Shown piece after piece: positions 5,393 through 49,486 of a stretch of 64,000 nt of DNA. A program made the translations under genes and the position numbers. A model generated the notes under the pieces. The model saw only the letters and a program-made list of their open reading frames with translations. It was not told the origin of the DNA and searched no databases. Position 1 is the first letter of the stretch. Every line of letters starts with the position of its first letter. The stretch is from contig NOWV01000015.1 in NCBI GenBank assembly GCA_003344405.1, positions 124,001 through 188,000 of the forward strand, in the 5' to 3' direction. Source of the stretch: Trichoplax sp. H2 (taxonomy: Eukaryota).

Positions 5393-8300
5393 ATGGCGAC
5401 GAAACAGCGGGTTCATATGTAAGTTAATTAATATGTGCTCTTTATTACTACACCTACAGCCGCTGGAACTATTGACATGACATATTAATGATTTTATTAA
5501 TAAAAAATGGTCGTTTAACCAACACAGTTATTGCCATTAGGTCTTGGTTCTAAATCATACCTTAGTAGAGCCAAAAAAGTTTTCTCTGATTGCCATTACT
5601 TTTGTTCATCTCATACTAAATAATGATATAATCTTGAACCAAACAAATCTTACAGGATTAACTTATACTTTTTAATATCCGAATATATTCTTATCGTAGT
5701 TGTAGACTTTCGATATGAAGGTGTAATATAATAGGAGTTTACTAGCCTTTGTAGGCTTCTTATCAGTATCTCTCAATTTTGTCTAACAGCCATATTCTCA
5801 ATATTTATAGGAGTAGCCAATTTCCCAAGAATAAAGTCATATATAGTCACTCGAAAAATCAACGCGTCGTCTTCAGTAGGCAAGTGCCAGCTCCTTTTAC
5901 TTTATCGTCCGAGATTAATAGAAGGAGCGCTCTGTCTACAATATCAGGTAAGCGAATAATTAATTATGTAAATATAAATATGCTACCATTTCATCCTTTG
6001 TCAATTCCAGATTCGCTCTCTAGATATTAACGATCTATTTTTCACGGTTTACTTTAGGCTTTGGTAAAAATCGTCCAGTAAAGAAAGGAAAGAATTCAAT
6101 GCAGGGATTTTCCAATATTATAGCTAACTTTGGCAGCCAGAGCAAGGGCAACTTTGTTCAAAGCTATGGCAGCCAACGACCCACAACCAAAAATAAACCA
6201 TCCACTACCAAGTCATCGGTTGCTCTAGTTCCTCCTTTGAGACGATTTATGACAGCCGTTTCAAGTGCTCATTCTACAAAAACCACTAAGTCTGCCATTA
6301 AAAGTGGTCATGCTTCATCAAAATCGAACGCTTCTCGTCAAGATCGTTACAGTACTGGCAAAGATAGCAATAGAAATACAACTGCTGTTAGTCGTGGCAC
6401 TGATGGAATGAAAAGTAATCAATCATCAAGATATAGCCAAGTCAGACCATCGAAAAAGTCAAACGATGCCACAGGAATTCCAATGTATTCAAAGTTACAG
6501 TCTAGACTTCACGATAGTCGTAGGCCAAGATTGCAGCCTATTGCTGAAACTATTAAGCAAAAGCCACGTAGTCGACGTACAACAAGCGAAATTACTCGTG
6601 TTTATTCATTAAGCACGCCATTTAATGGGCCAACAGCAATGAAATCCAATAATGGTCATTTATCAGAACGTCATTCTAGGCCTGATAATGATCGTTATGA
6701 TGCCAATAAATCGGTTAAAAAAGAAGATAAGCCGAAACAACCTATTCCAACATTAAAGTCTCGCTTACCTAAATCCGTATTTTCATCCATGGTCGTTGGT
6801 AGCAACAAATTCGGTCAATCTAATCCTGATGATAATGATGCCAATAAACTTGAATCACAACCGGAAAAGAACAATAAATTCTCCCAAAATGCAAAGAAAT
6901 CTTCAAAGCCTCTACCCTCCTTTGCAAAAAATCGTCGTGCACGTGGTGCTGCAAGTGATTCCGACCTTAGTAAAACCAACAAAAAGCCGACTAAACCATC
7001 CAAGCCCAAATATAAATCCGATTTACATTTGAACTTCTTACCAATCAATCTGTCTTATTACAAAGATTATGGTGTTACTGAACCAAAATCATTGGGTATG
7101 AAGAAATGGGCTTCTGATGAAAAGATTCGTAAATCTCCCTACAAGTTAAATCTTAAAGTCAACCCTGAATCTACATCGAATGGTGGCAAAATTCCTTCTC
7201 CACGCGATGAACGCCGTAAATTATCATCTGAAAATCAAAATCTAGCCATTAGCCCAGCCAATCAGGAACTAATTAAAGGGCTCAATCGAATCTATGGTAA
7301 ATCAGTAAAACAGAACTTATTGCGTGGAAAAATAGCTGAAAAGGTGCGCCATGCACAAGAAGAACAGAAACTCCGTGAAAAAATACAATCCAAGAATGAA
7401 AGGCGCTTATCGAATATAAAAAAGAAGGAAAGGGAGGAAGATATCCGTAACATTAAAGAAAAACATAATAAGGATTTACAAAAGCGCTATGCCAATACAC
7501 ATATGTCGATGAAAGCATTATCTATTGCTGTTATTGCCGGTATGAAACTAAAGCAAGGATGGATGCCGCGAGTGGATGATTCTAAAAAATCGCAACCATT
7601 GTACACAACCACATCGATTAAAAAGCCTAAAAGTGATCAAGATAAGGCTAGTTCTGTTGCAAGTTCCAGAAATTCGATCGCTCTTCCTGCGGAGGAGGGA
7701 CATAAATTTTTACCAGCCTTGGATGTGAAGCATGAAACGCAGCAACCGTTGAGCTATAATCTCAGCAATCGAAATAGCCCCAAGTCTATGTTTAATCTAA
7801 GAGCAGAGGATGATGAGTCGATCTTACCACGACTAAAAACTCCTCCAGATTTTTCAAAATCGCTTGATACCCTGCAAAGAGAGATTGAATTGCCTAAAAC
7901 GCCTGATTTTCTCGATAGACAAACATTACATCTCGATGACGATGATGACGACCAAATTACTAAGAGTGACAATGACAAACATGTCAAATTTAGTGACATG
8001 GACGATAATCCTGTCGTAGGAACGACATCAGGCTACTCGAACCCGCAGTCTCCTATCCTTTCAGGTAAAATAGTGTAGTATGGCCGAAATGATGATTATG
8101 GGCCTCGTAGCTTACAGTGCTTATAATGTTTTGATAACTTATTCAACAGGAAGTTCGAGAGGCAATAGCCCGATACCTAATAATTCTGTTGTGTTGCCTA
8201 AAATCTCATCACGAGGTATGTCTAGACTACGATTCCTACTAGTATTCATTGGAAGTTTTGCAGATGTGCTCCATTTATAATCCCTTTAAAAATTATTGAA

Positions 8301-9792
8301 ATATTCATACATATGCTGACCAGTGATAGATATAGATGACAATAAATTAGTAGATATTTATTGCTAGTTTAAAATAGAGGTGAAGAATAAATTACTAGAT
8401 CTTGATTACTGGTCTAAAATAGATGAAAATAAATTATTTTATCTTCATATAGATGAAAAATAAGTTACTACTGTTTCGTTATTTCGTCTTTTTTGTTTTA
8501 ATTGGTGGATTATCTTAATTACAGATAATAGTCCACATGGACCAAGAAGCTCAGCGCCATCTGATGAAGGTAGGAAATTATCGAGCAACGGTGATGATGC
8601 GATAGCTAAGCGATTAGCAGCATTGAGGAAAGGATCCAAAATCGGAAGTGGTGAAAGTAGCCATGATTTATTGAGCTCGCAAAATGGTCTTGAGCAGAGG
8701 CTAAAGGATAATAAATTGATAGATGACGATGCAGATGCCGATAGCAGCAAGGGCAGCTTAACCGAAGTACCAGATATCATACAGCAAAAGTTAAAGGAAC
8801 TTAAATTAAAGAATCGATTGGATAATCCTGGAGATAATTCATCGGATATCGATCAAGGCGATAGTAGGCGCAATAGCAGTGTATATAGTTTAGGATCACT
8901 AAGGACAAACCAAAGGCCAGGTGCATTAGGCTCTGCTAGTAGTGGTTACGCTAGCGAAGGAATTTCACATTTGCCGTCCACAGCTACTGATCCAATCCGT
9001 GTTTTACCAACTCTGGGTAATGATAGTGACAAAATAAACAATGTAAGTGGAGCAGTTAAAAGCAGTTTACAATCTAGATTAGCTCGACTTCGATCCAATC
9101 TGGATAAGAACAGAGCTGGAAGGCCATACAAGCCTCTTAGTCGTAATAGCAGCTTAAAACAGTTGGCTCTGGCTAATAGCAATGCCCAGCAAGATTCGAC
9201 TGCAACACCAACGAGTTTTAGAGCTGAATCTCAAGTAGATCAAGTTCAATCTGGTATAGCAAATTCCAATAATAATGATGATGACCATGGTGATACGTCA
9301 AAGTCGCCAATTAGCTCGTTTGATTTATTACAAAAATTAAAATCGAACGCTGACAATCATAGTGCAGGCAGCAGACGCAGCAGTTTATTTGATACGGATG
9401 GCGGAGTACAGAAAAAGTTAGAAATACTCAAGAATAATCTAAACGATACTCCTGGATATAATAATTACAAACCTAGTAGTGGCAGTCGTATTGGTAGTAG
9501 ACGCACTAGTTTGTTCGATGAAGAGGAGGATGTTGCTAAGAGATTGAATGATCTACGTAGTAGTTTAAATGATGATAAAGGATTATTTCAATCGTCTTCG
9601 CGTCCCTACACTGGCAGTAACATCGGCAGTAGGCGAGCTAGTTTGTTCGATAATGGTGGAGATATTCAGAATCAATTAGATTCCTTAAGGGATAACGCCA
9701 GTTCTAACCAGGGATTATATAATTCGCAATCACAAGATCTCTTACAACAGAAACTAGCTGAATTACGATCGACAGCAGCGGTCGAAGGGTAA
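5393..9792 (+). CDS. Large Ser/Lys/Arg/Asp-rich, mostly disordered protein of unknown function (~1,150 aa, 5 exons) with a short coiled coil and C-terminal GSRRxSLFD repeats
   Basis: Phase-compatible GT-AG exons 5393-5418, 5811-5947, 6058-8064, 8150-8215 and 8525-9792 join the ORFs at 5779, 6099, 8080 and 8623 into one frame (MATKQRVHMSSQFPK...STAAVEG*). No family recognised. Confidence 0.7.
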
Positions 9793-39547: not shown

Positions 39548-40989
39548 TCGAAATAACTTGTATATATATATAAAGTCGGAGGCGAGAACAAATTTTGGTT
39601 ATTCATTCGTTCCAAGGAATCCAGTGGAAGCAAAGTTAAATTTTATGACCTGCTAGTCACTGTACAGTTAATAATCAATATAATTCATTTTACAATGATC
39701 ATTAAGAAAACATTTATTTAGTTATATGGCCAACGCTCTGTTGTAGAACTTCCTACTGAACTTGCGTTCTTTTTAAGGCATAATTTGTAATGTATGAATT
39801 CTATGAAGTTGGAATGTTTCTATTTCAAATTTATCACCATACTTTATTGATCTTTTCATAATAAATTGTTGTTGAAGCTAATTCTTCATAAAGAAGCTGA
39901 ATTTGGAGATTACAATAATTGCTTCGCTTTAATAATTAAATTAAACGACATTGAGATGAAATAAATGGCATTTAAAAGTTATGATTGTTTGATAAAGTCG
40001 CTATTTGGATTTTATTCCGCCTGTTATGCAAGCCGTACAGTACGAAGCATGCTGTTCAAAAAATTTTTCAAAACTTTTACGTCATTATGTTATGCACCTT
40101 ACAATTATTACTGCGATAGCTGTAATGGATTTAATGACTACCTGATAATCGTACAGAGTGCATTTTTGTGCTCAAACGTCCAGTATTTGAACGCACTTGC
40201 ATCGGGCAAGAAACATCATTTACTTGGGAATATGCTATGCACTTAATGTTGGCAGTATTATAGAGCTAAAAATCAGGTCATTATTGCTCAAAGTAGTATT
40301 TAAAACTTGCAGATCCATTAAATTAGCTATTCATATTTTTAAGCCAAAGTTAATAAAACTCGAGTTAGCTGATCAATGATAATTACATAATTGTAGTTTA
40401 CACTTCCACCTATTCGGCTGTTCATACCCTTGATAAAGGAATGTTTATAAAGCATCCCTTGCTGAGATACGTACTTACACATCAAGATCAAAATGTTGCT
40501 AATTTATGAGGAACAAGACTGTGGTAGAAGGTATTGATTTATGAAATCGTATAATTAATTAAAGGATAATTCCATCGGTACCTTTCTTCCTAGTACTGAT
40601 TGAATGTTCGCTTGATGCTTTTGAATGCTTTAATTAAATTTTATAAAAAGGATTTAAACAAATTTGCAATTGAGAATTAAATTATTCAAAATATTTTCTA
40701 TTGTTGCCTCATTCTTATTGGCTGGTTGTACGGCATCAAATTATTATTTATATCAATATGTACCTTGGTGAGCCTATGGTAGTCATAGCAAAATAGAATA
40801 AAAAATAGTTCCTATCGAAAACTTTTTCCGTAAAGGTATAGTATCACATTTTTCTATCTACCGTTTAGAGAGGAAGGTTTTTCTAGTCCTATCGGAAAGG
40901 TTCCTGGGATTGGACTTTTCTAGTCAGCGGGAAACTTACCATTATAGTGTATTCTATCGATCAGCATATCGTGGCGATCCTTTAATTTA

Positions 40990-43668
40990 ATGATGAATAT
41001 CTGTATAACTATTTTACTGGCTGTTTTAGCCTTGACGGTTGTAGATGGCCATATCCGTTTAAACTATCCGAAGGCAAGAATGTATGATTTTGACTTTTTG
41101 GATAATGTTCGAACTCGCAGCCCTTGTGGTATGCCAGAAAATGCTACTGGCACAGGTATCTTTAAAACTAAATTGATCACAGGCTCTAAGATTAGTATTA
41201 CTTGGCACATGGCATTTCCTCATGGTGGTGGTTTTCGTATCCAAATTTTACATGGTAACGGAACAATTTTACATGAATTAACCCCGACAAATAATACCAA
41301 TCCATGGTATTCTATCAGTAATTCCACTATTCAGAGCTATTTGGCTACTTTACCTAGTGGTTTTACTTGTGATCATTGCATTATTCGACTAACACGTAAT
41401 GCCAAGGAATGGTCCACTCCTAGTGGACCCTATATATTTTGGAGTTGTGCTGATGTAGAAGTCAATAATTTCCAATGCAATCAGTTAAATTGCTATCATG
41501 GAGGGAGCATAGCATCGAATTGTAATTCTGCTTCAGCAGTTTGTTCATGCCCCAATAATCAATTCTCGGGCGATCGCTGCCAATATATGAATGAATGTGA
41601 AACTTACGCAGACTGTAATAATAATGGTCTATGTGTAACCATTAATCAAGATTATTATTATCCGTTAAAGCAGTGCTTCTGCTCGGCTGGTTTCTATGGC
41701 TATAAGTGCTCTAAAACTTCCAATTTAACGGTGGTTATGCCTAATGATGTTTCCTCTTATTCCTACACGAAATTAGACAATAGCAGTGAAATCTGGTATA
41801 AAATTCTATCTGCTACTAATGAAGTGGAGGTTATTCATAAAACATTATCTACTAGTTGGGTAGGTTTAGGCTGGAGGCCACAAGGATTAAAAGCATCTTG
41901 CCAATTTTTCCCTCCTGGAGCGGCACCAGGTCTTATTAGTGGACCTGAAAGCGCTGTAGGTGAAGGAGGAAATCAACCAGAGGGCAATTCTGAAAGTACA
42001 AGTAAACCAGAAGGGGGTGCAGAAAGTACTGCTCAACCTGAAGGCAACGCTGGAAGTACCGCTCAACCCGAAGGCAACGCTGAAAGCACTGCTAAACCCG
42101 AAGGGGAAGGTGGAAGTTCAGAAAGTGGCGGCGCTGCTGGCAATCTTGTAACCCATGCCATGGATTGTACCGATATGGTGATTGGTAGTGCTCGAGGGAA
42201 TATGTTTCGATTATTTGATTACTATTCGCGTGATCGTAGTACACCTCGAATGGATTCCTATTTTGGTGGAGAAGACAGTATTACTGCAGCGGTGGGCTCC
42301 GAAAGCAACGGCTATACCACATTAAGATGGCGTAAGCAGTTAACTGCAGAAGGAACCACCGATCATACTATTCAGGATGAAGTATTGGATGTTATTTATG
42401 CTTATGGTCAAAAGTATCCTTACTCTCATCAATTTCCATCCGGTCTGCATAATTCGCATCGCTTAACCAATTACTATAATGATGATGAGCTCAAATATCA
42501 CGGTTATCAAAATCGTGGACGTAAAAGTCTCAATTTTTTTGGTGATTCCAAGTTAGTTACTAATACTTGTAGTGGTAGCTGGAAAACTGGATGTACCGGC
42601 AATTCTTGTTCTAATAACTTACAATGGAATATTTACAATGATGGAACAGTCCATTTTACAATGTCAGCAGTAACGGATAAATGGATTGGTTTAGGTATTT
42701 CAAATGATCATAAGATGGCCAAGACCGACGCCATCGTTGGTTGGGTAGGGAAAGTTGCCCCTGTCATTACCGATCGCTACATATCTAGCTATGCTCCTCC
42801 ACCAGTTGATGCTGTATCCAATGTTAACTTACTTGAAGGATCGAAATTGAATGGTACCACTACATTAAAATTTTATCGTCCAATTAATACGAGTGACTCA
42901 CAAGATATCAGTTTACATGGCTGCCATTACTTTATATTTGCGATTGGTGGTCAATATACTGATTCTAATTTTGCCATTTCCAAGCATGCCTCGACTCCAT
43001 TTATTACAAGTCGAAAAATTTGTATCGATGTTAATCAGTGTTCAAAGTCTTATTCACCGTTAGGTATTGACATCATGACTTCTACTCCTTGTAGTGGAAG
43101 CTGGGGTACACGATGCCTGAATGACCAATGCGCTAGCAATCTACGCTGGAATGTCTATAACGACGGAACGGTGCATTTCCAGATGTCGGCTGATACTGAT
43201 AAATGGCTTGGAATGGGTATTTCTGTGGATAAGAAAATGCCATCTTCAGATGCTATCGTAGGCTGGATATCCCAGGGTACTGCAAAGTTAAGAGATCGCT
43301 TTCTTAAAGGTTATTTTATACCTGCAGTCGATGCAATTACTAATGTCGATTTAATTAATGGTTCTCTCATCAATGGTATAACGACGCTAAACTTTAAGCG
43401 TGCTATGAACACCTCGGATTCACAAAATGATGTTAGTTTGCATGGTTGCCATTACTTTTTCTTGGGCACTGGTGGTAGTTATGATGATAATAACCTTGAT
43501 ATTGGTGTCCATCCTCAAACACCAGCTGTCGCTAAAATTCCAATGTGTCTTTATGCTAGTCGATGTACACAATTCAGTCCACCAGGAACTGGCGCAGCTG
43601 GCACTATTTTTACTCTAATTCATTTGGTCATTGCTGTCTTAAGCGTCTTGATTAGTAGTATTTTCTAA
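40990..43668 (+). CDS. Secreted/GPI-type protein: N-terminal-His LPMO-like domain, EGF-like repeats, three DOMON domains (892 aa, no coding introns)
   Basis: Signal peptide ending VDG then H; WHMAFPHGGGF; LPSGFTCDHCIIRL...FWSCADV; EGF cysteine patterns (CSCPNNQFSGDRC, CFCSAGFYGYKC); DOMON motifs WVGLGW/WIGLGIS...M..DAIVGW...DR; hydrophobic C-terminus with no cytosolic tail. Confidence 0.9.
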   Translation: MMNICITILLAVLALTVVDGHIRLNYPKARMYDFDFLDNVRTRSPCGMPENATGTGIFKTKLITGSKISITWHMAFPHGGGFRIQILHGNGTILHELTPTNNTNPWYSISNSTIQSYLATLPSGFTCDHCIIRLTRNAKEWSTPSGPYIFWSCADVEVNNFQCNQLNCYHGGSIASNCNSASAVCSCPNNQFSGDRCQYMNECETYADCNNNGLCVTINQDYYYPLKQCFCSAGFYGYKCSKTSNLTVVMPNDVSSYSYTKLDNSSEIWYKILSATNEVEVIHKTLSTSWVGLGWRPQGLKASCQFFPPGAAPGLISGPESAVGEGGNQPEGNSESTSKPEGGAESTAQPEGNAGSTAQPEGNAESTAKPEGEGGSSESGGAAGNLVTHAMDCTDMVIGSARGNMFRLFDYYSRDRSTPRMDSYFGGEDSITAAVGSESNGYTTLRWRKQLTAEGTTDHTIQDEVLDVIYAYGQKYPYSHQFPSGLHNSHRLTNYYNDDELKYHGYQNRGRKSLNFFGDSKLVTNTCSGSWKTGCTGNSCSNNLQWNIYNDGTVHFTMSAVTDKWIGLGISNDHKMAKTDAIVGWVGKVAPVITDRYISSYAPPPVDAVSNVNLLEGSKLNGTTTLKFYRPINTSDSQDISLHGCHYFIFAIGGQYTDSNFAISKHASTPFITSRKICIDVNQCSKSYSPLGIDIMTSTPCSGSWGTRCLNDQCASNLRWNVYNDGTVHFQMSADTDKWLGMGISVDKKMPSSDAIVGWISQGTAKLRDRFLKGYFIPAVDAITNVDLINGSLINGITTLNFKRAMNTSDSQNDVSLHGCHYFFLGTGGSYDDNNLDIGVHPQTPAVAKIPMCLYASRCTQFSPPGTGAAGTIFTLIHLVIAVLSVLISSIF
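41977..42126 (+). repeat. Coding 30-bp tandem repeat (PEGNAESTAx, 5 units) inside the first DOMON domain
   Basis: PEGNSESTSK PEGGAESTAQ PEGNAGSTAQ PEGNAESTAK PEGEGGSSES. Confidence 0.85.
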
Positions 43669-44459
43669 CTGGTTCTACGTGCAGCATGATTAATGGGATT
43701 ACTGTTCATGCTAATATTGATTCATTATTCGGGTCTATTTGAAATAGAATATCGTATAGCTGATTCATTGCAATTTAGTAGAGTAAGGATTGATTTGTAA
43801 TCAATTGCCACTGCTAGATGGGCCACTAATTTTAGATTATATGCAAGCCACAAGCTGTTGTTAGAAAATTCAGCAAGTGATCATATTAATCTCAATTCTG
43901 CTTCTTTTTTTTCGTTAACAAATATATCATATAATGAATGATACCGATTCAAAGGAATTAAGAATTTATATGTATTAATTTCTTAAAGTAGAGTAGATTA
44001 TGGTGAAAATAAAATTCAAAAAGAAAACGTATCTTATAGCAATGTTTAATTCTCAACAACACTGTACTTTCAGAAGATAAAATATTATGCTTAATTTTAA
44101 TTAAATTGAAAAGTCGAGTTGTTCAGTAAAGTGTATTTCTGAACAACCTATCTAACCCGTTGTATCAAATAAAGTAAGCATTAAAATTTAGAAATGTTAA
44201 AGTTTAATAAAATTTATCTCTGAATAGGACTTTTTTGACGCATACATGAATTTGCTTCAAGGATAAAATTTCAACCATTGAGGCATTAAGAAAGTCCATT
44301 AGGAAATATTTAGTAAAGTTTTCTTTCGACATAGCATTATGAACGCATTTCGTAAATATGCGTAAATGACAATATTTCAATAAATTTACGCCTGAAGAAC
44401 AAGATTAAGTAGTAGTCTAAAATTTTCTATTCAGTCCAATAGTAAGTAAGTGTACAGAA

Positions 44460-45090
44460 TTGTCCGTCAAGTAATTTCATAGAGTAGAATCGATTGAGTC
44501 TATGGGTCTGTTTTATATCACCTACAATGATAATTGCTATAGCTCAATTCTATCTTATGGTAATACCTATATAAACCTATATAGACATGTAGACATACCA
44601 TGCAATACTGTATAGATTTAAATGTAAGATATTCGCATGATGTAGTAGAACCTAACAGATGTACGAATTAAGCTGTTGTATATCATCTGCTTTGATCATT
44701 TACTATAACTCGATTCTATCCTTTGATTATAGCTATATAGATATAACTTGTAATGTAGATTTATCCGTTAAGTATTTTCATAAAGTAAAGTAAAACCTAA
44801 TTGATACAAGAGTTTGGCGGTTGTATATCATGTACAAGATTTCTAATTGCTATAGCTCGATTCGATCTTTTGGTTATACCTATACAAACATGCAGACATA
44901 CCATGCAATATAGATTTATCCGTCAAGTACTTTCATAGTGGAATAAAACTTAATTGACACGAATATTAGGCTGTTGTATATCATCTACAATAATAATAAT
45001 TGCTATAGCTCGATTCGATCTTTGGATTACATCCATATAGATATGTAGATGAACCATTTGATATAGATTATCCGTCAAGTATTTTATGGT
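44460..45090. repeat. Degenerate tandem repeat, ~150-165 bp unit, about 4 copies
   Basis: gctatagctc(g/a)attc(t/g)atc near 44536, 44702, 44849 and 45002; tccgt(c/t)aagta and gttgtatatcat also recur. Confidence 0.75.
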
Positions 45091-45594
45091 CTTATTACAG
45101 ACAGATCGTGAGCTCATCACTTTTTTAACAAATAAATTCAAAATTATATATGCTTGAGAACTTTAGCATTAGTCAAATTTTATTATCCCATTCTGCACAG
45201 CTTATTGAGCATATATATCGCTTCTAGACATTATTAATTAAGGATAGAATACTAGAATACATATTAAAATAGAAATATGTTGGAAATTAGCTAGATATGT
45301 TTCGAAAGATTATCAAATCAATTTTCTATTCCAGTAAAATTTTTACAATAAACAGAGTAATCACTATAGTTTTAATTAAGCGTTTTCTACTGACTTTCAG
45401 AGTATAATATCTCCCTGTATACTACTTTACATATTAATTTTCTCTGCTTCGTTCTATTAACCTATCCGAGAAAGGGTAAAGGGATATCGCTGAATTGTGA
45501 CTTAAACTAGTTAATTCATAGTACAGCATGATACATCAATAACAGCTGCCGATGCTTCTTGATGCCCTCCCTTTTCCCCAATTATGGAAATCAT

Positions 45595-46000
45595 CACAAG
45601 AAATGGACTCCTGTAGCGTATTGCTTGAAGTCCTCAGAAAAGTATCCTAGCAGCTTAATTCAATAACTAAATAATTTCCTTCCCGCAGTTTATTTGCTTT
45701 AAACCACTTGGTAAGTACCCTAGTTACGTCATAAAAACGTAGCCGAATTATAAAAACATTCAGCCTAATTAATTCTCTCCTGTAGCTTATAGCTTGAAAT
45801 TATGAAAATACCTAATCAAAGTGATTCCCTCCTGCGATATCATGCTTAGATTATTAGGAAAGCACCCAAATGGATTCCTTCCTGCAGCTTATTGCTTCAA
45901 AACATAAAGGAAGCAAGCAAAAAAAAGCGGCGAAATTATGCACGCACTGAACTAAATGGATTCTTTCCTGTAGTTTATAGCTTTAAATCATTAGAAATGT
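45595..46000. repeat. Degenerate tandem repeat, ~75-100 bp unit, about 5 copies
   Basis: aaatggattc..cctg(t/c)ag(c/t)ttat(a/t)gctt variants near 45601, 45675, 45775, 45868 and 45955. Confidence 0.55.
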
Positions 46001-46828
46001 ATCCTGGCCGTCTAATTGGAAAGTCATACAGACTCACTTGCTATGAATGATCAAAGTGGTATTAAAGTGTAAGTAAACACCATCTTTTCACACTTGTTTC
46101 CTAACGCAGACAATTAAATTCGATAGAGGCATTTCAAGGCAGAAATGGCCGAGGACAATACAGTAACGAGCAGTTAAATGAAACTTGAAGATATATTACA
46201 TCGTCGATACGAAGTAACTGCAACCTTCAACTCTATCGATATAAATGATAATTTAATCCCTCAACACATTATACCTTCGACTTTAATCGGGATTAAATTT
46301 CTAGCTATCATCGATATTTTTGTACTTGCTCTTAAAGAAGCCATTTGTATAATGTCTTAATCCAACTGATCATTGGAAGCTTATTGTATATTGTTGCCAT
46401 CGTTTATTGACAGCAGTCTATTATGTCAATAAATTCACTCCGATAACCAATTGGAGCTCCTGCATTAAATAGGAAATTGTAACAATTCTAATTATATAAT
46501 TAATTATTGATCCTCTACCATGCTATGTTATTGTCAAGGATTAAACCAGATGATTGGTTCGTAAGGAGATTATCGTAATAATGCTATAGGTGAAAAATAG
46601 AGAATAAGGTCATGACTTTACGGAAGAAACTCTCGCCAGTATAATTATAATCCCTGAGCAGACCTATACAAAAATAGCAGGAAGCGAACAAAGGCCAAAA
46701 AATGACTATTTAATCATCCATTTACATACTTTCTTTGTGCTTATTTGAACTTTAGATCCAATTTTAATCTATATCAACAAGAAAGGCGTTGAGAGAACGA
46801 ATAGTGGTGATCAATCCATGTATTCAAG

Positions 46829-48835
46829 ATGAATAAGTTGTGCTTTATTTTAATTGGGGTGTTGGCCATAACGATGGTCAATGGACACATTCGCATCCTC
46901 TTCCCAATATCTAGAATGTATGATTTCGATTTTATCGTCAATTTTAGATCACGAAGTCCTTGTGGAATGCCGGAAAATGCAACCGGCCAAGGTATCTTTA
47001 AAACGAAATTAGTTGCTGGTTCAACCTTTGATATGACATGGCATTTAGCATTTGCTCATCAAGGTGGATTTCGAATTCAAATTTTACAACGTAATGGAGT
47101 TGTAAGCCATGAATTAACACCGACCAATGACTCGGTGCCATGGTTCTCCTCGGATAATGCTACTATTCAAAATTATCTTGTTACCCTTCCTCAAGGCTTT
47201 ACTTGCGATCATTGCATTATACGCCTTATACGCGATGTCGCCGAAAGATCAACCCCTACTAAACCGTTCCAATATTGGAGTTGTGCTGATGTTGAAATTG
47301 GCAATTTTCCTTGTACACAATTAAATTGTTACAATGGCGGAACGATAGCATCTAATTGTAATTCAGCATCGCCAACATGTAGTTGTGCTACTGGTCTTGT
47401 CTCGGGCAATCGATGCGAATTTGTCAACGAGTGTGAAACAACTTCAGACTGTAATGGCAATGGCCAATGTCTGACTATTAACCAAGATTATTATTACCCT
47501 TTAAAGCAATGTTACTGTTCTCCTGGCTATTATGGCTATCGATGTTCCCAAACTTCGAATCTTACTGTCGCTATGCCTGGCGATTTAACGTCATATTTCT
47601 ATTTTCGACTGGATAAAAATAGTGAAATGTGGTATAGAATTTTATCTGCTAGCAATGAAATTGAAGTAATCCATAAAACGCGATCGATTACTTGGGTAGG
47701 ATTAGGCTGGCGACCACAAGGTTTGATGGAGTCTTGTCAGTTTTATCCGGCCGGAGCAGCACCAGGTTTAGCTTTTGGTCCACCAGGTTCTCCTGGAGAG
47801 AGCAATCAAGCAGAATCAGATGCTAAGAAAACGCCAGTAAAGCATTCTATGGCTTGTACAGACATGGTGATTGGTAGTGTTCGCGGAAATACTGTTCGAA
47901 TTTTCGATTACTACTCTCGTGATCGCGGTACACCTAGAAAAGATTCTTATTATGGCGGAATAGATAGCATTACATCAGCAGTAGGTTCAGAAGTCAATGG
48001 TGTTACAACGTTAAGATGGCGGAAAAAGTTAGCGGCCGATGGACCTACCGATCACACTATCATCGATGCACCCTTGGATATTATTTATGCTTATGGTCAA
48101 AAAGTGCCATTTACCCACGAGAAGCCTTCGGGTATTATTAATACCACTCGCGAAACGACATTTTATGGCGATGATGAATTAAAATATCATGGTTTTGAAC
48201 ATCGAGGTCGTCGTTCGCTCAATTTTTTCTCAGATAATCGATTGAATGCCGCTACCTGTGGCGGTAGTTGGACTTCCAATTGTGCAGGCAATACGTGTAG
48301 CCAAACTTTAGCGTGGAATGTGTATAATGATGGAACAGTGCATTTCACGATGTCTGCAAAGACCGATAAATGGCTTGCATTGGGTATTTCCAACGACGCT
48401 AAAATGCCCAATTCCGATGCTATTGTGGGTTGGGTATCCAATGGAGCTGTTGTATTAATAGATCGCTTTCTTAAGACGTATTCTTTACCCGCTATCGACG
48501 CCATTAGCAATGTTCAAGTTGTCAATGGTTCCCTTATTAACGGCGTAACAATCTTGAATTTTATTCGTCAAATTAATACTACCGATACGCAAAATGATAT
48601 CAGTTTGCATGGTTGCCATTATTTTTTCTTTGGTGTTGGTGGAGCTTATAATAATAATACATTGGATATTGCAGCCCATCCTTCAATACCTGCTATCACT
48701 AGTCAAAAAATATGTATTGATGCCAGTCAATGTTCTCAATTTAAGCCACCAGGTAGTGGTACAGCTGGAATCTTTACCATAACCCATTTACTGACGACGA
48801 TGATAGCCGTTGTCCTATCCAACATTTTGCTTTAA
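46829..48835 (+). CDS. Tandem paralog: N-terminal-His LPMO-like domain, EGF-like repeats, two DOMON domains, GPI-type tail (668 aa, no coding introns)
   Basis: Signal peptide ending VNG then H; WHLAFAHQGGF; LPQGFTCDHCIIRL...YWSCADV. Collinear with the 892-aa ORF but lacks the PEG repeats and one DOMON. Confidence 0.9.
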   Translation: MNKLCFILIGVLAITMVNGHIRILFPISRMYDFDFIVNFRSRSPCGMPENATGQGIFKTKLVAGSTFDMTWHLAFAHQGGFRIQILQRNGVVSHELTPTNDSVPWFSSDNATIQNYLVTLPQGFTCDHCIIRLIRDVAERSTPTKPFQYWSCADVEIGNFPCTQLNCYNGGTIASNCNSASPTCSCATGLVSGNRCEFVNECETTSDCNGNGQCLTINQDYYYPLKQCYCSPGYYGYRCSQTSNLTVAMPGDLTSYFYFRLDKNSEMWYRILSASNEIEVIHKTRSITWVGLGWRPQGLMESCQFYPAGAAPGLAFGPPGSPGESNQAESDAKKTPVKHSMACTDMVIGSVRGNTVRIFDYYSRDRGTPRKDSYYGGIDSITSAVGSEVNGVTTLRWRKKLAADGPTDHTIIDAPLDIIYAYGQKVPFTHEKPSGIINTTRETTFYGDDELKYHGFEHRGRRSLNFFSDNRLNAATCGGSWTSNCAGNTCSQTLAWNVYNDGTVHFTMSAKTDKWLALGISNDAKMPNSDAIVGWVSNGAVVLIDRFLKTYSLPAIDAISNVQVVNGSLINGVTILNFIRQINTTDTQNDISLHGCHYFFFGVGGAYNNNTLDIAAHPSIPAITSQKICIDASQCSQFKPPGSGTAGIFTITHLLTTMIAVVLSNILL

Positions 48836-49486
48836 AATATCGATGACCAACAATACGATGGGATATAGTATTCGGGTTATCGTCCAAGTTAGAAATACCG
48901 TGAATTCGACAATTTCCTATTTCATTCTGTTTAATTTATGTCTTAAAGTAGCGTTCTACAAGGTAGATTAAAAGGATAAAAAAAGATATTCATAGTTTAT
49001 CTGATATGCACGCGTATGCTATCGGCAGTAGACCAGTCTCTAACGCTCGTAATGATAAAATGAGGCAATTTAGAATAAATATAGTAAATTGGTGATAGAA
49101 TTATCATAATTTCGGATTTGTCCATTGCATTCTATTATAGCTTTGAGTGGGATGATTTTTGATTCTGTGAATAAATTCAACTTGCTCATTTAAAATTGGC
49201 GATAGTTTGCCTAATCTAGGTAAAGTATAACATAGAAATTGTTAGACAGTGGACTAATGATCATTATAACGATACGAAGATCAAGAGCTCTCAAAATCAA
49301 CCTAGAATTTCAATCGTGAGGACTTTACTTTCTTACATTTTATTCTTTCCAGTCATTTTCTTCCTTGATTTCATAAATTCAATCGTTACCAAATATAAAT
49401 GAAATCTAAATGAATTAGGGAATCATATTCGTTACCGTGTAAGAGCGAATCGGTTTTTAGCCCCATTGGATTCAGCATTCACCATC

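Follow-up and report, generated by a model that had tools for sequence, protein, structure and literature searches.

Two tandem Trichoplax genes predicted to join a histidine-brace copper domain to cytochrome-like DOMON domains

The copper-binding histidine brace is known from secreted polysaccharide oxidases, from copper chaperones and from particulate methane monooxygenase (pMMO), and the manner in which such proteins are supplied with electrons in vivo is a standing question, to which the separate cytochrome domains of the fungal cellobiose and pyranose dehydrogenases (CDH and PDH) have so far been the main answer. Here we consider a stretch of 64,000 nucleotides from Trichoplax sp. H2 (assembly GCA_003344405.1, contig NOWV01000015.1, positions 124,001 to 188,000 of the forward strand; below called the window, with positions counted from its first letter), in which two neighbouring genes encode proteins that appear to join a copper domain of this kind to DOMON domains resembling such cytochromes. 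An earlier note on this DNA had read them as a self-contained surface redox system built around a lytic polysaccharide monooxygenase (LPMO) such as those of family AA15; its observation is confirmed by the present analysis, and its interpretation is partly supported. The explanation ranked first below is that the copper site is LPMO-like but not that of a classical polysaccharide-cleaving LPMO, that it would be reduced by haems of the DOMON domains, and that it would have a copper redox role at the cell surface. Taken as a whole, this explanation is credited with a little less than an even chance.

The closest described systems are the following, as given in the available parts of the papers cited. 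TdAA15A (5MSZ), an AA15 enzyme with proven activity on cellulose and chitin, has a copper brace formed by His1 and His91, with Tyr184 in the axial position and Ala89 as a neighbouring active-site residue (PMC5823890). In X325 proteins an aspartate carboxylate is the fourth copper ligand (PMC10952591); no polysaccharide activity is known for these proteins, and Bim1, a histidine-brace protein held by a glycosylphosphatidylinositol (GPI) anchor, acts with the Cu(I) importer Ctr1 in copper uptake (PMC10952591, PMC7924993). The fungal cytochrome domains of family AA8 serve as electron donors to histidine-brace copper enzymes (PMC13575373), and in the AA8 domain of a pyranose dehydrogenase dependent on pyrroloquinoline quinone (PQQ; structure 6jt6, a crystal of residues 21-215) the haem ligands are Met83 and His182 (PMC6881789). 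In plants, AIR12 is a GPI-anchored protein with a single DOMON, for which an electron paramagnetic resonance analysis is cited as consistent with binding of b-haem, and the CYBDOM protein HYP1 passes electrons from ascorbate to ferric and cupric acceptors (PMC10784544).

The available parts of a review of histidine-brace proteins cover LPMOs, pMMO, CopC, X325/Bim1, YcnI and PmoF1, with nothing like the present fusion; one 2019 paper, in the part available, mentions the domain combination in passing, and the accessible part of a preprint lists DOMON signals among predicted LPMOs (10.1101/2025.06.05.658061). Our literature search found no characterisation of the family, and nothing on Trichoplax lytic polysaccharide enzymes or on the TRIADDRAFT identifiers under which the T. 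adhaerens proteins are recorded; searches for LPMO together with DOMON and for natural fusions of LPMO and AA8 gave no description of the family in the matches listed. AA15 domains fused to a DOMON are not reported, and our searches brought up none. The name nahoda, given by NCBI to insect members of the family, occurs in 14 papers of the literature found, in gene lists only and never in a title or abstract, as far as the available parts of these sources go, and the bacterial family name SCE4755 led to no publication in the literature search.

The histidine-brace domain

The two genes are uninterrupted open reading frames in tandem on the plus strand, gene 1 at 40990-43668 (892 aa, P0001) and gene 2 at 46829-48835 (668 aa, P0002). 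Their products are 60% identical across 690 aligned residues, with an extra DOMON in gene 1, and have a predicted layout in common: signal peptide, His as residue 1 after cleavage, a domain of the LPMO superfamily with 140 residues, two EGF-like modules, two or three DOMON domains and a GPI-like tail. The cleavage sites and GPI anchors are assigned from sequence rules and conservation. In gene 1 the putative signal peptide (residues 1-20, 40990..41049, ending in LTVVDG) has a hydrophobic N-terminus with a maximal nine-residue Kyte-Doolittle value of 3.21, Gly at -1 and Val at -3; in gene 2 (residues 1-19, 46829..46885, ending in ITMVNG) the (-3,-1) rule is likewise satisfied by Val and Gly. 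The codon that comes next encodes His in both cases, CAT at 41050-41052 and CAC at 46886-46888.

Homologues were searched for with residues 1-174 of gene 2, comprising signal peptide, copper domain and first EGF residues, among 1.84 billion representative proteins, and 308 clusters were found at E ≤0.001, 79 of them at E ≤1e-10. The stored homologues were aligned by our own hidden Markov model (HMM) into 203 rows, and the denominators below are the rows that reach each position. His1 is kept in 149/151 rows; P0037, from a nematode, has Asn instead, and P0165 has Ser. Directly before His1 stands Ala, Gly, Ser, Cys or Thr in 148/149 rows, and the His itself stands at median residue 22, which is the pattern expected when signal peptidase cleaves directly before the His; the pattern exceeds chance. 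The second His of the brace (His58) is kept in 173/182 rows, of the 143 rows that reach the axial position 119 have Phe and 13 have Tyr, Cys26 and Cys133 are without exception (158/158 and 143/143), and the pair of a CxxC motif is nearly invariant. Two conserved aspartates, Asp15 (149/157 rows) and Asp135 (131/143 rows), are candidates for a fourth copper ligand. In gene 1 the corresponding residues are His21 (mature His1), His78 (His58) and the axial Phe150, with Tyr148 at the second-sphere position and four Cys in the domain; in gene 2 they are His20, His77 and Tyr149, with Phe147 at the second-sphere position. The earlier note had pointed to a His right after the likely cleavage site in both paralogues and to the motifs AFPHGG/AFAHQG, TCDHCIIRL and IFWSCADV/QYWSCADV; all of these are in the translations, and the homologue alignment shows both histidines to be nearly invariant.

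A brace residue has been lost, with the rest kept, in P0008 (TRIADDRAFT_60676; Asp at the second His) and in P0037, which is from Auanema (Asn at position 1), and the second His is replaced in further homologues by Gln (P0024), Asn (P0074) or Lys (P0153). Such proteins may be copper-free derivatives.

By profile comparison the N-terminal domain, encoded at 41050..41469 in gene 1 and at 46886..47305 in gene 2, belongs to the LPMO superfamily, as the earlier note had proposed. Pfam LPMO_10 (PF03067, cut-off 23) matches the 143-residue mature N-terminus alone with 28.7 bits in gene 1 and 30.8 bits in gene 2 (26.6 bits for the whole gene 2 protein), the match being restricted to profile positions 81-183 of 183, and our own HMM finds the domain of gene 1 as well. 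The best named match is NCBIfam NF043005, the "SCE4755 family polysaccharide monooxygenase-like protein", with 33.7 bits for gene 1 and 45.9 bits for gene 2 (E 5.8e-12). Among the 44 family sequences that make up our profile A1, matches at E ≤0.01 are to LPMO_10 in 15/44, to BIM1-like_dom in 13/44 and to AA9 in 1/44. When the PDB is searched with A1, or with the N-terminal-only profile A5, TdAA15A is the best entry (E 2.5e-9 and 3e-8), and matches are found also to AA10 4oy7 (0.0034 and 0.0062) and AA9 4b5q (0.41 and 0.039). In the printed alignments His58 falls on His91 of TdAA15A, the aromatic residue three places before the conserved Cys (Phe/Tyr130) on Tyr184, the CxxC (Cys107/110) on C-T-N-C, and Cys133-Ala-Asp on C-A-D; furthermore, His86 of TdAA15A aligns with the His of a family "WH" motif, and both proteins begin with His1 after the signal peptide. 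The columns of the second His and the axial aromatic line up in 4oy7 and 4b5q too.

Consider now the possibility that the resemblance to LPMOs is superficial, and that the domain is a reeler-like or other Ig-like sandwich which binds no metal and keeps its histidines for structural reasons. The first part of the domain, which the PDB alignments leave uncovered, would be in line with this. On the other side, three independent libraries agree on the LPMO superfamily (Pfam with LPMO_10 and BIM1-like, NCBIfam with SCE4755, and the PDB with AA15, AA10 and AA9), and a structural model of the bacterial relative P0191 has, as its only named neighbours, clusters of LPMO_10, BIM1-like and SCE4755, next to unnamed "hypothetical protein" clusters (TM 0.47-0.61). 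A mere likeness of this sort is therefore regarded as very improbable. The reeler fold, to which the earlier note had itself drawn attention, gave no Reeler match in Pfam at E up to 1 or 10. A feature-based search of a structure atlas with the window domain returned scores of at most 0.87, which are a lead only.

The departures from proven LPMOs concern the size of the domain and the surroundings of the copper site. In the family, 36 N-terminal residues stand in for about 80 positions of the LPMO_10 profile, that is, about 45 fewer residues ahead of the matched part, and it is this N-terminal region that builds much of the substrate surface in AA10 and AA15. The chain of TdAA15A has 201 residues with five disulfides, as against about 140 residues with four Cys in the window domain; only its residues 65-197 align, the family domain is about 60 residues shorter, and the first 45 or so residues of the family domain have no counterpart in the alignment. 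At the place of Ala89, two residues before the second His, 135 of 181 family rows have Tyr and 14 have Phe. The column two places ahead of the axial aromatic aligns with Glu182 of TdAA15A, with the Glu of QENFFSC in AA10 and with the Gln of QFYIGC in AA9; here the family has, instead of the second-sphere Glu or Gln that is important for LPMO catalysis, Tyr in 110 of 141 rows, with Phe in a further 10 and Thr in 6. From the shorter domain and from Tyr/Phe at both of these positions it follows that the domain is not a member of AA15, and in this respect the likeness to AA15 drawn by the earlier note does not extend to membership.

The same features bear on the interpretation which that note preferred, and which is ranked second here: a true LPMO, AA15-like in function, that cleaves polysaccharide of the food or the matrix, with the DOMON domains as a built-in reductant and the whole protein as a natural fusion of the fungal pair of CDH cytochrome and LPMO. 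This account draws strength from LPMO_10 scores above the cut-off in both genes, from the proven cellulose and chitin activity of the AA15 enzyme that is the nearest solved structure, from the conservation of brace, axial Phe/Tyr and CxxC, from a conserved Glu120 that could serve as a second-sphere residue, and from the constant fusion to DOMON domains with a Met/His pair. Trichoplax, moreover, digests algae extracellularly. Tyr/Phe in place of the second-sphere Glu/Gln of AA15, AA10 and AA9, Tyr/Phe in place of Ala89, and the missing N-terminal residues all tell against it, and together with the distribution of the family, to which we return, they make it a possible but rather unlikely account.

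Nearest to the domain stands the bacterial SCE4755 family, and Bim1-like proteins are also near; both groups are compact, and their profiles are matched nearly end to end (BIM1-like profile positions 3-122 of 140 in gene 1; SCE4755 profile positions 27-145 of 146). The bacterial proteins of NF043005 have the same size (a profile of 146 positions) and share His1, an Arg, P-C-G, the second His, CxxC, and the axial aromatic with x-x-C-A-D behind it. With 140, 108 and 88 bits, the bacterial P0191, P0183 and P0166 exceed the curated cut-off of 75, which the window proteins do not reach; the latter are thus relatives and not members. They also differ from the bacterial proteins in lacking an invariant Glu four residues before the second His, which is absent from the animal family, and in carrying EGF and DOMON domains where the bacterial proteins have MYXO-CTERM tails, fn3 domains or low-complexity tails. 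An hhalign comparison of the alignments A5 and A6, which have three bacterial sequences in common and therefore give an inflated result, does not enter into this assessment. Bim1/X325 (PF20238) resembles the window proteins as a compact histidine-brace domain on a GPI anchor, but is without EGF or DOMON, and gene 1 at 15.5 bits is below its cut-off of 27 bits, with no match for gene 2 at E ≤0.01; some family members pass this cut-off, e.g., P0031 at 29.8 bits. A non-classical copper role is placed first because the domain is compact, its second sphere is altered, and it stands close to SCE4755 and Bim1-like proteins.

The DOMON domains and their fusion to the copper domain

Between the copper domain and the first DOMON lie the two EGF-like modules, at 41470..41718 in gene 1 and 47306..47554 in gene 2. 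Those of gene 1 give profile matches to teneurin and Notch EGF repeats (EGF_2 22.9 bits, just above the cut-off of 22.1; EGF_TEN and EGF_laminin weak), and the region of gene 2, which aligns with them, remains under the cut-offs (EGF_2 18.5 bits, EGF_Teneurin 17.0 bits). At the other end, both proteins have PPG[ST]G[TA]AG ahead of an uncharged hydrophobic tail: PPGTGAAG in gene 1, with 34 uncharged residues to the C-terminus and a maximal Kyte-Doolittle value of 3.36 (43591..43668, with stop codon), and PPGSGTAG in gene 2, with 29 uncharged residues (48752..48835, with stop codon), both of which are putative GPI signals. The layout of EGF-like repeats and GPI-type tail described earlier thus stands, with weak scores for the former and with the latter assigned from sequence rules.

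Pfam DOMON (PF03351, cut-off 32.7) finds three stretches in gene 1 (192.9 bits) and two in gene 2 (134.9 bits), in agreement with the two to three domains of the earlier note. DOMON-A is at 41755..42540 in gene 1 (Met391, His504; Pfam DOMON; domain E 1.6e-72 with our HMM A4), with a repeat-encoded loop insert, and at 47591..48232 in gene 2 (Met341, His454; domain E 3.5e-72 with A4). It is followed in gene 1 by DOMON-B1 at 42559..43062 (Met576, His666; Pfam DOMON at residues 539-653; domain E 5.9e-76 with our HMM A2; a match to 6jt6) and DOMON-B2 at 43081..43590 (Met750, His841; Pfam DOMON; domain E 3.4e-71 with A2), and in gene 2 by a single DOMON-B at 48248..48751 (Met526, His617; Pfam DOMON 84.7 bits; domain E 1.2e-76 with A2; CDH-cyt 16.2 bits, cut-off 27).

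The residues named are those of a Met/His pair. In an alignment of 13 C-terminal DOMON domains (A2) the Met and a His 91 residues downstream are invariant (13/13), and in an alignment of 11 middle domains (A4) the pair is invariant together with the motifs H.MDC.D and KYHG (11/11). When all stored homologues are counted, the Met is kept in 179/181 and 205/208 rows and the His in 107/107 and 122/126 rows. The profiles of DOMON-A and DOMON-B align with each other at 97% probability, with the Met and His columns matched. The A2 profile, furthermore, finds the AA8 cytochrome domain of the fungal PQQ dehydrogenase (6jt6) at E 0.0033 and places the family Met on chain Met65, which, in a chain of 197 residues, fits the haem ligand Met83. 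The DOMON domains look cytochrome-like and are predicted to hold b-type haem, and the haem-type character that the earlier note had given them is a prediction with support at the level of sequence. Elsewhere in the family the CDH-cyt cut-off is passed, with 41.7 bits in the placozoan paralogue P0004 and 56.1 bits in P0009, a bivalve protein. Searches of the PDB with single sequences of DOMON-A and DOMON-B gave no significant match.

The comparison with known cytochromes of this fold brings out how the parts are connected. The fungal AA8 domains of CDH and of the PQQ pyranose dehydrogenase have a DOMON-type fold and hold a Met/His b-haem, such as is predicted for the family; the family Met aligns with their ligand Met, although the match is weak (E 0.003-0.006). 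In the fungal system the cytochrome is fused to the dehydrogenase that supplies the electrons and the LPMO is separate, whereas in the window proteins the cytochrome-like and copper domains are fused and a dehydrogenase is missing. The extracellular DOMON domains of plant AIR12 and CYBDOM (HYP1) are likewise proposed to hold Met/His b-haem, and AIR12 has a GPI anchor, but these proteins lack a histidine-brace domain, the window proteins lack a fused cytochrome b561, and the homology is that of the DOMON superfamily only. By analogy, AIR12 and CYBDOM would be the best model for how the DOMON domains here are charged with electrons. Neither the Pfam scan nor our own HMMs found a flavin, PQQ or cytochrome b561 electron-source domain in either protein. 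From this follows that the system is not self-contained, contrary to the earlier note, and that its electrons must come from outside.

The fusion itself is constant. Among the best 150 hits of the search with residues 1-174, 49 are of at least 400 aa, and all 49 carry at least one DOMON by our own HMMs, in accordance with a joining of copper and DOMON domains that is conserved. This bears on a further explanation, ranked third, in which the domains are independent: the N-terminus would bind copper or be purely adhesive, the DOMON domains would bind sugars, or haem for an unrelated purpose, no electrons would pass from haem to copper, and the protein would mainly be a matrix or adhesion receptor. 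DOMON domains can indeed bind sugars instead of haem (PMC10784544, available part), and the PDB entry that DOMON-B matches best is dopamine beta-hydroxylase, through its DOMON. The EGF modules, and the SEA domains and mucin-like inserts of relatives, are typical of adhesion proteins, and a brace residue is lost in some members, as in P0008 and P0037. Yet the Met/His pair is nearly invariant in both DOMON types, and dopamine beta-hydroxylase is without that Met; the brace residues are nearly invariant too; and the two parts occur together in every one of the 49 long hits. We consider this explanation improbable.

The family and the window genes

The two genes are tandem paralogues in a conserved invertebrate family. 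The existence of invertebrate homologues had been predicted by the earlier note, and the named members come from many phyla: Placozoa, insects, collembolans, crustaceans, chelicerates, nematodes, a nematomorph, a priapulid, an annelid, molluscs, echinoderms, hemichordates and tunicates. Cnidarian, sponge or vertebrate members were not among the 30 clusters looked up, which is not a claim of absence. Word-indexed homologue searches with the N-terminal region brought up placozoan proteins alone in one case and 15 proteins in another, and are uninformative on the range of phyla. The labels in use are "uncharacterized", "DOMON-like domain-containing protein nahoda", "proteoglycan 4-like", "Teneurin-3" and "cell surface glycoprotein 1". 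The minimal form of the family, of about 430-500 aa, has the copper domain, two EGF modules, DOMON-A and a membrane anchor. The window proteins have the order seen in nahoda-type proteins, for which there is no curated model: histidine-brace domain, two EGF modules, DOMON-A (H.MDC.D ... KYHG), DOMON-B and membrane anchor. The insect nahoda proteins match gene 2 at E 1e-108 to 1e-119, and they and their invertebrate orthologues share the N-terminal motifs HV.L.FPPAR...WHL.YPH...F.SCADV; the insect proteins differ in that the GPI-like end gives way to a SEA-like region, a transmembrane helix and a cytoplasmic tail that is conserved, and in having one DOMON-B, where placozoans have one to three. 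The tails of the insect proteins P0010, P0020 and P0026 share the strongly conserved motif PDFYFMPSQRKYSGEVVRV, which hints at a contact in sorting or signalling, for which the placozoan proteins with their GPI-type end would have no counterpart.

That the family is retained in so many invertebrate phyla, echinoderms and hemichordates among them, is easier to reconcile with housekeeping than with feeding, and is therefore a further point against a polysaccharide-cleaving LPMO. The copper domain alone is found in more distant copies, in haptophytes (P0141, P0160/P0198), in Rhodelphis (P0124) and in bacteria, and the copies in unicellular eukaryotes imply that the domain is older than the animals or has moved between lineages. 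In Rhodelphis P0124 an EGF-like stretch stands behind the compact histidine-brace domain. A FastTree tree of the copper domain groups the placozoan copies; its support values were not considered, and no conclusion on origin is drawn from it.

Of 61 genomes sampled from one class, 31 have a match to the bacterial SCE4755-type family, as against none of 14 control genomes. No conserved neighbour was seen across the 22 bacterial loci inspected (2, and then 20 with 123 crudely called open reading frames), and none of these 123 around the 20 loci was a glycoside hydrolase or a carbohydrate-binding module, which counts, weakly, against the interpretation as a true LPMO. Some of the bacterial genes have redox- or copper-related neighbours: a DUF1592/1588/1595/1585 protein with DUF1552, an MbnB-family enzyme, a cytochrome b/c fusion and a multihaem protein (L001 6667-9749; L038 9176-10120; L039 1709-3457; L048 1930-3660). 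The scattered cytochrome, MopE-motif and MbnB neighbours look incidental.

In T. adhaerens, the product of gene 2 has a 99% identical public counterpart in TRIADDRAFT_61435, and that of gene 1 corresponds to TRIADDRAFT_61434. The public model of the latter (P0006, 862 aa) begins at Met31 of the open reading frame, and thus lacks the signal peptide and the N-terminal His. Contigs from RNA-Seq libraries are colinear with both reading frames and with their 5' ends, without joints: for gene 1 a single contig of 3302 nt spans 40880-44181, and for gene 2 there are contigs at 46647-47499 and 48095-48900, and, from a run of uncertain type, at 46508-47398 and 47400-48900. Although such contigs alone do not prove transcription, they fit unspliced transcripts that contain the start codons and the His1 codons, and their extension upstream to 40880 fits the longer model of gene 1. 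Over the intergenic stretch 44323-46490 the four runs gave no contig cover, a gap that carries no evidential weight. Strain variants in the run contigs amount to 15 synonymous and 14 non-synonymous listings, with overlap between runs, which is too few to judge selection; all ligand residues are unaffected. The expectation that automated annotation would report only EGF and DOMON is right for gene 1, but the public record of gene 2 already carries PF03067.

Our six-frame scan of the window with the HMMs of these domains found no further copies outside the two genes. Within gene 1, a 30-nt tandem repeat at 41973-42104 (4.4 copies, 76% matches) encodes the ten-residue Pro/Glu/Gly-rich repeat of the DOMON-A loop; the loop has a short insert in gene 2 and long, acidic, Pro-rich inserts in insect, hemichordate and tunicate relatives. 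The spacer between the genes contains a 153-bp tandem repeat at 44752-45085 (2.2 copies, 79% matches). Elsewhere in the window, a plus-strand frame of 351 aa at 60216-61268 matches rhodopsin-family seven-transmembrane receptors (Pfam 7tm_1, 61.9 bits), and two long plus-strand frames rich in Ser, Lys and Asn at 6024-8078 and 8464-9792 (684 and 442 aa), without a Pfam match, may be exons of a single low-complexity protein.

A proposed copper and haem relay at the cell surface

The explanation ranked first can now be put in the form of a scheme. The protein would be anchored at the outer face of the cell, with the compact histidine-brace copper domain as its mature N-terminus, two EGF modules as a spacer, and two or three Met/His DOMON domains. 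The haems of the latter would receive electrons from outside the protein, from extracellular ascorbate or from a partner of the cytochrome b561 type in the membrane, and would pass them on within the molecule to the copper site, where Cu(II) would be reduced to Cu(I). The site being LPMO-like, but not that of a classical polysaccharide-cleaving LPMO, the leading guess for the output is copper redox chemistry at the surface: either capture of copper in the manner of Bim1 and hand-over as Cu(I), or an oxidase or peroxygenase reaction on a component of the matrix.

What the sequences show is the homology of the domains, the conserved ligand residues and a fusion that is constant. Binding of copper, binding of haem, electron transfer between the two, the nature of the donor and the output reaction are predictions from sequence.

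Several observations weigh against the scheme. On the copper side, the PDB alignments reach just the C-terminal two thirds of the domain and leave its first 45 or so residues uncovered; the fold, a chelating distance between His1 and His58 and a contact between the domains are putative. Glu120, which is kept in 124/145 rows, might supply a second-sphere carboxylate from another strand and so keep canonical LPMO chemistry possible. On the haem side, the best PDB match of DOMON-B, the dopamine beta-hydroxylase DOMON (4zel, E 1.7e-10), is not a cytochrome and has Leu at the position of the family Met; the window proteins are below the CDH-cyt cut-off (PF16010, 27), with 23.4 bits for gene 1, from DOMON-B1, and 13.7 bits for gene 2; the DOMON-A profile finds no PDB entry at E up to 10; and the His ligand is placed by its position and conservation, not through alignment to a solved cytochrome. 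The two EGF modules, finally, may keep the copper and haem domains apart.

A surface copper site reduced by DOMON haems would have consequences beyond Trichoplax. In the widest form of the proposal, the family is an ancient metalloprotein of the invertebrate cell surface, and its histidine-brace copper centre is permanently wired to DOMON domains of the b-type cytochrome kind, one to several in number. This would make it the first case in which nature has fused an LPMO-type site to the cytochrome that reduces it, and its altered second sphere would point to a chemistry unlike that of known LPMOs, either haem-driven reduction of copper and its hand-over for uptake or oxidation of matrix or glycocalyx. 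We advance this form tentatively, and it is more probably too wide than right. If the proposal is true, a single-chain animal protein with copper and DOMON domains would offer a natural and genetically tractable case of such an electron relay, for NCBI labels point to a fly gene and there are relatives in nematodes and in Trichoplax. LPMO-like copper biology would, moreover, reach the surface of animal cells, where it might bear on copper uptake or on how the extracellular matrix is remodelled, and a family that goes by "uncharacterized", "proteoglycan 4-like" or "Teneurin-3" would gain a redox function that can be tested.

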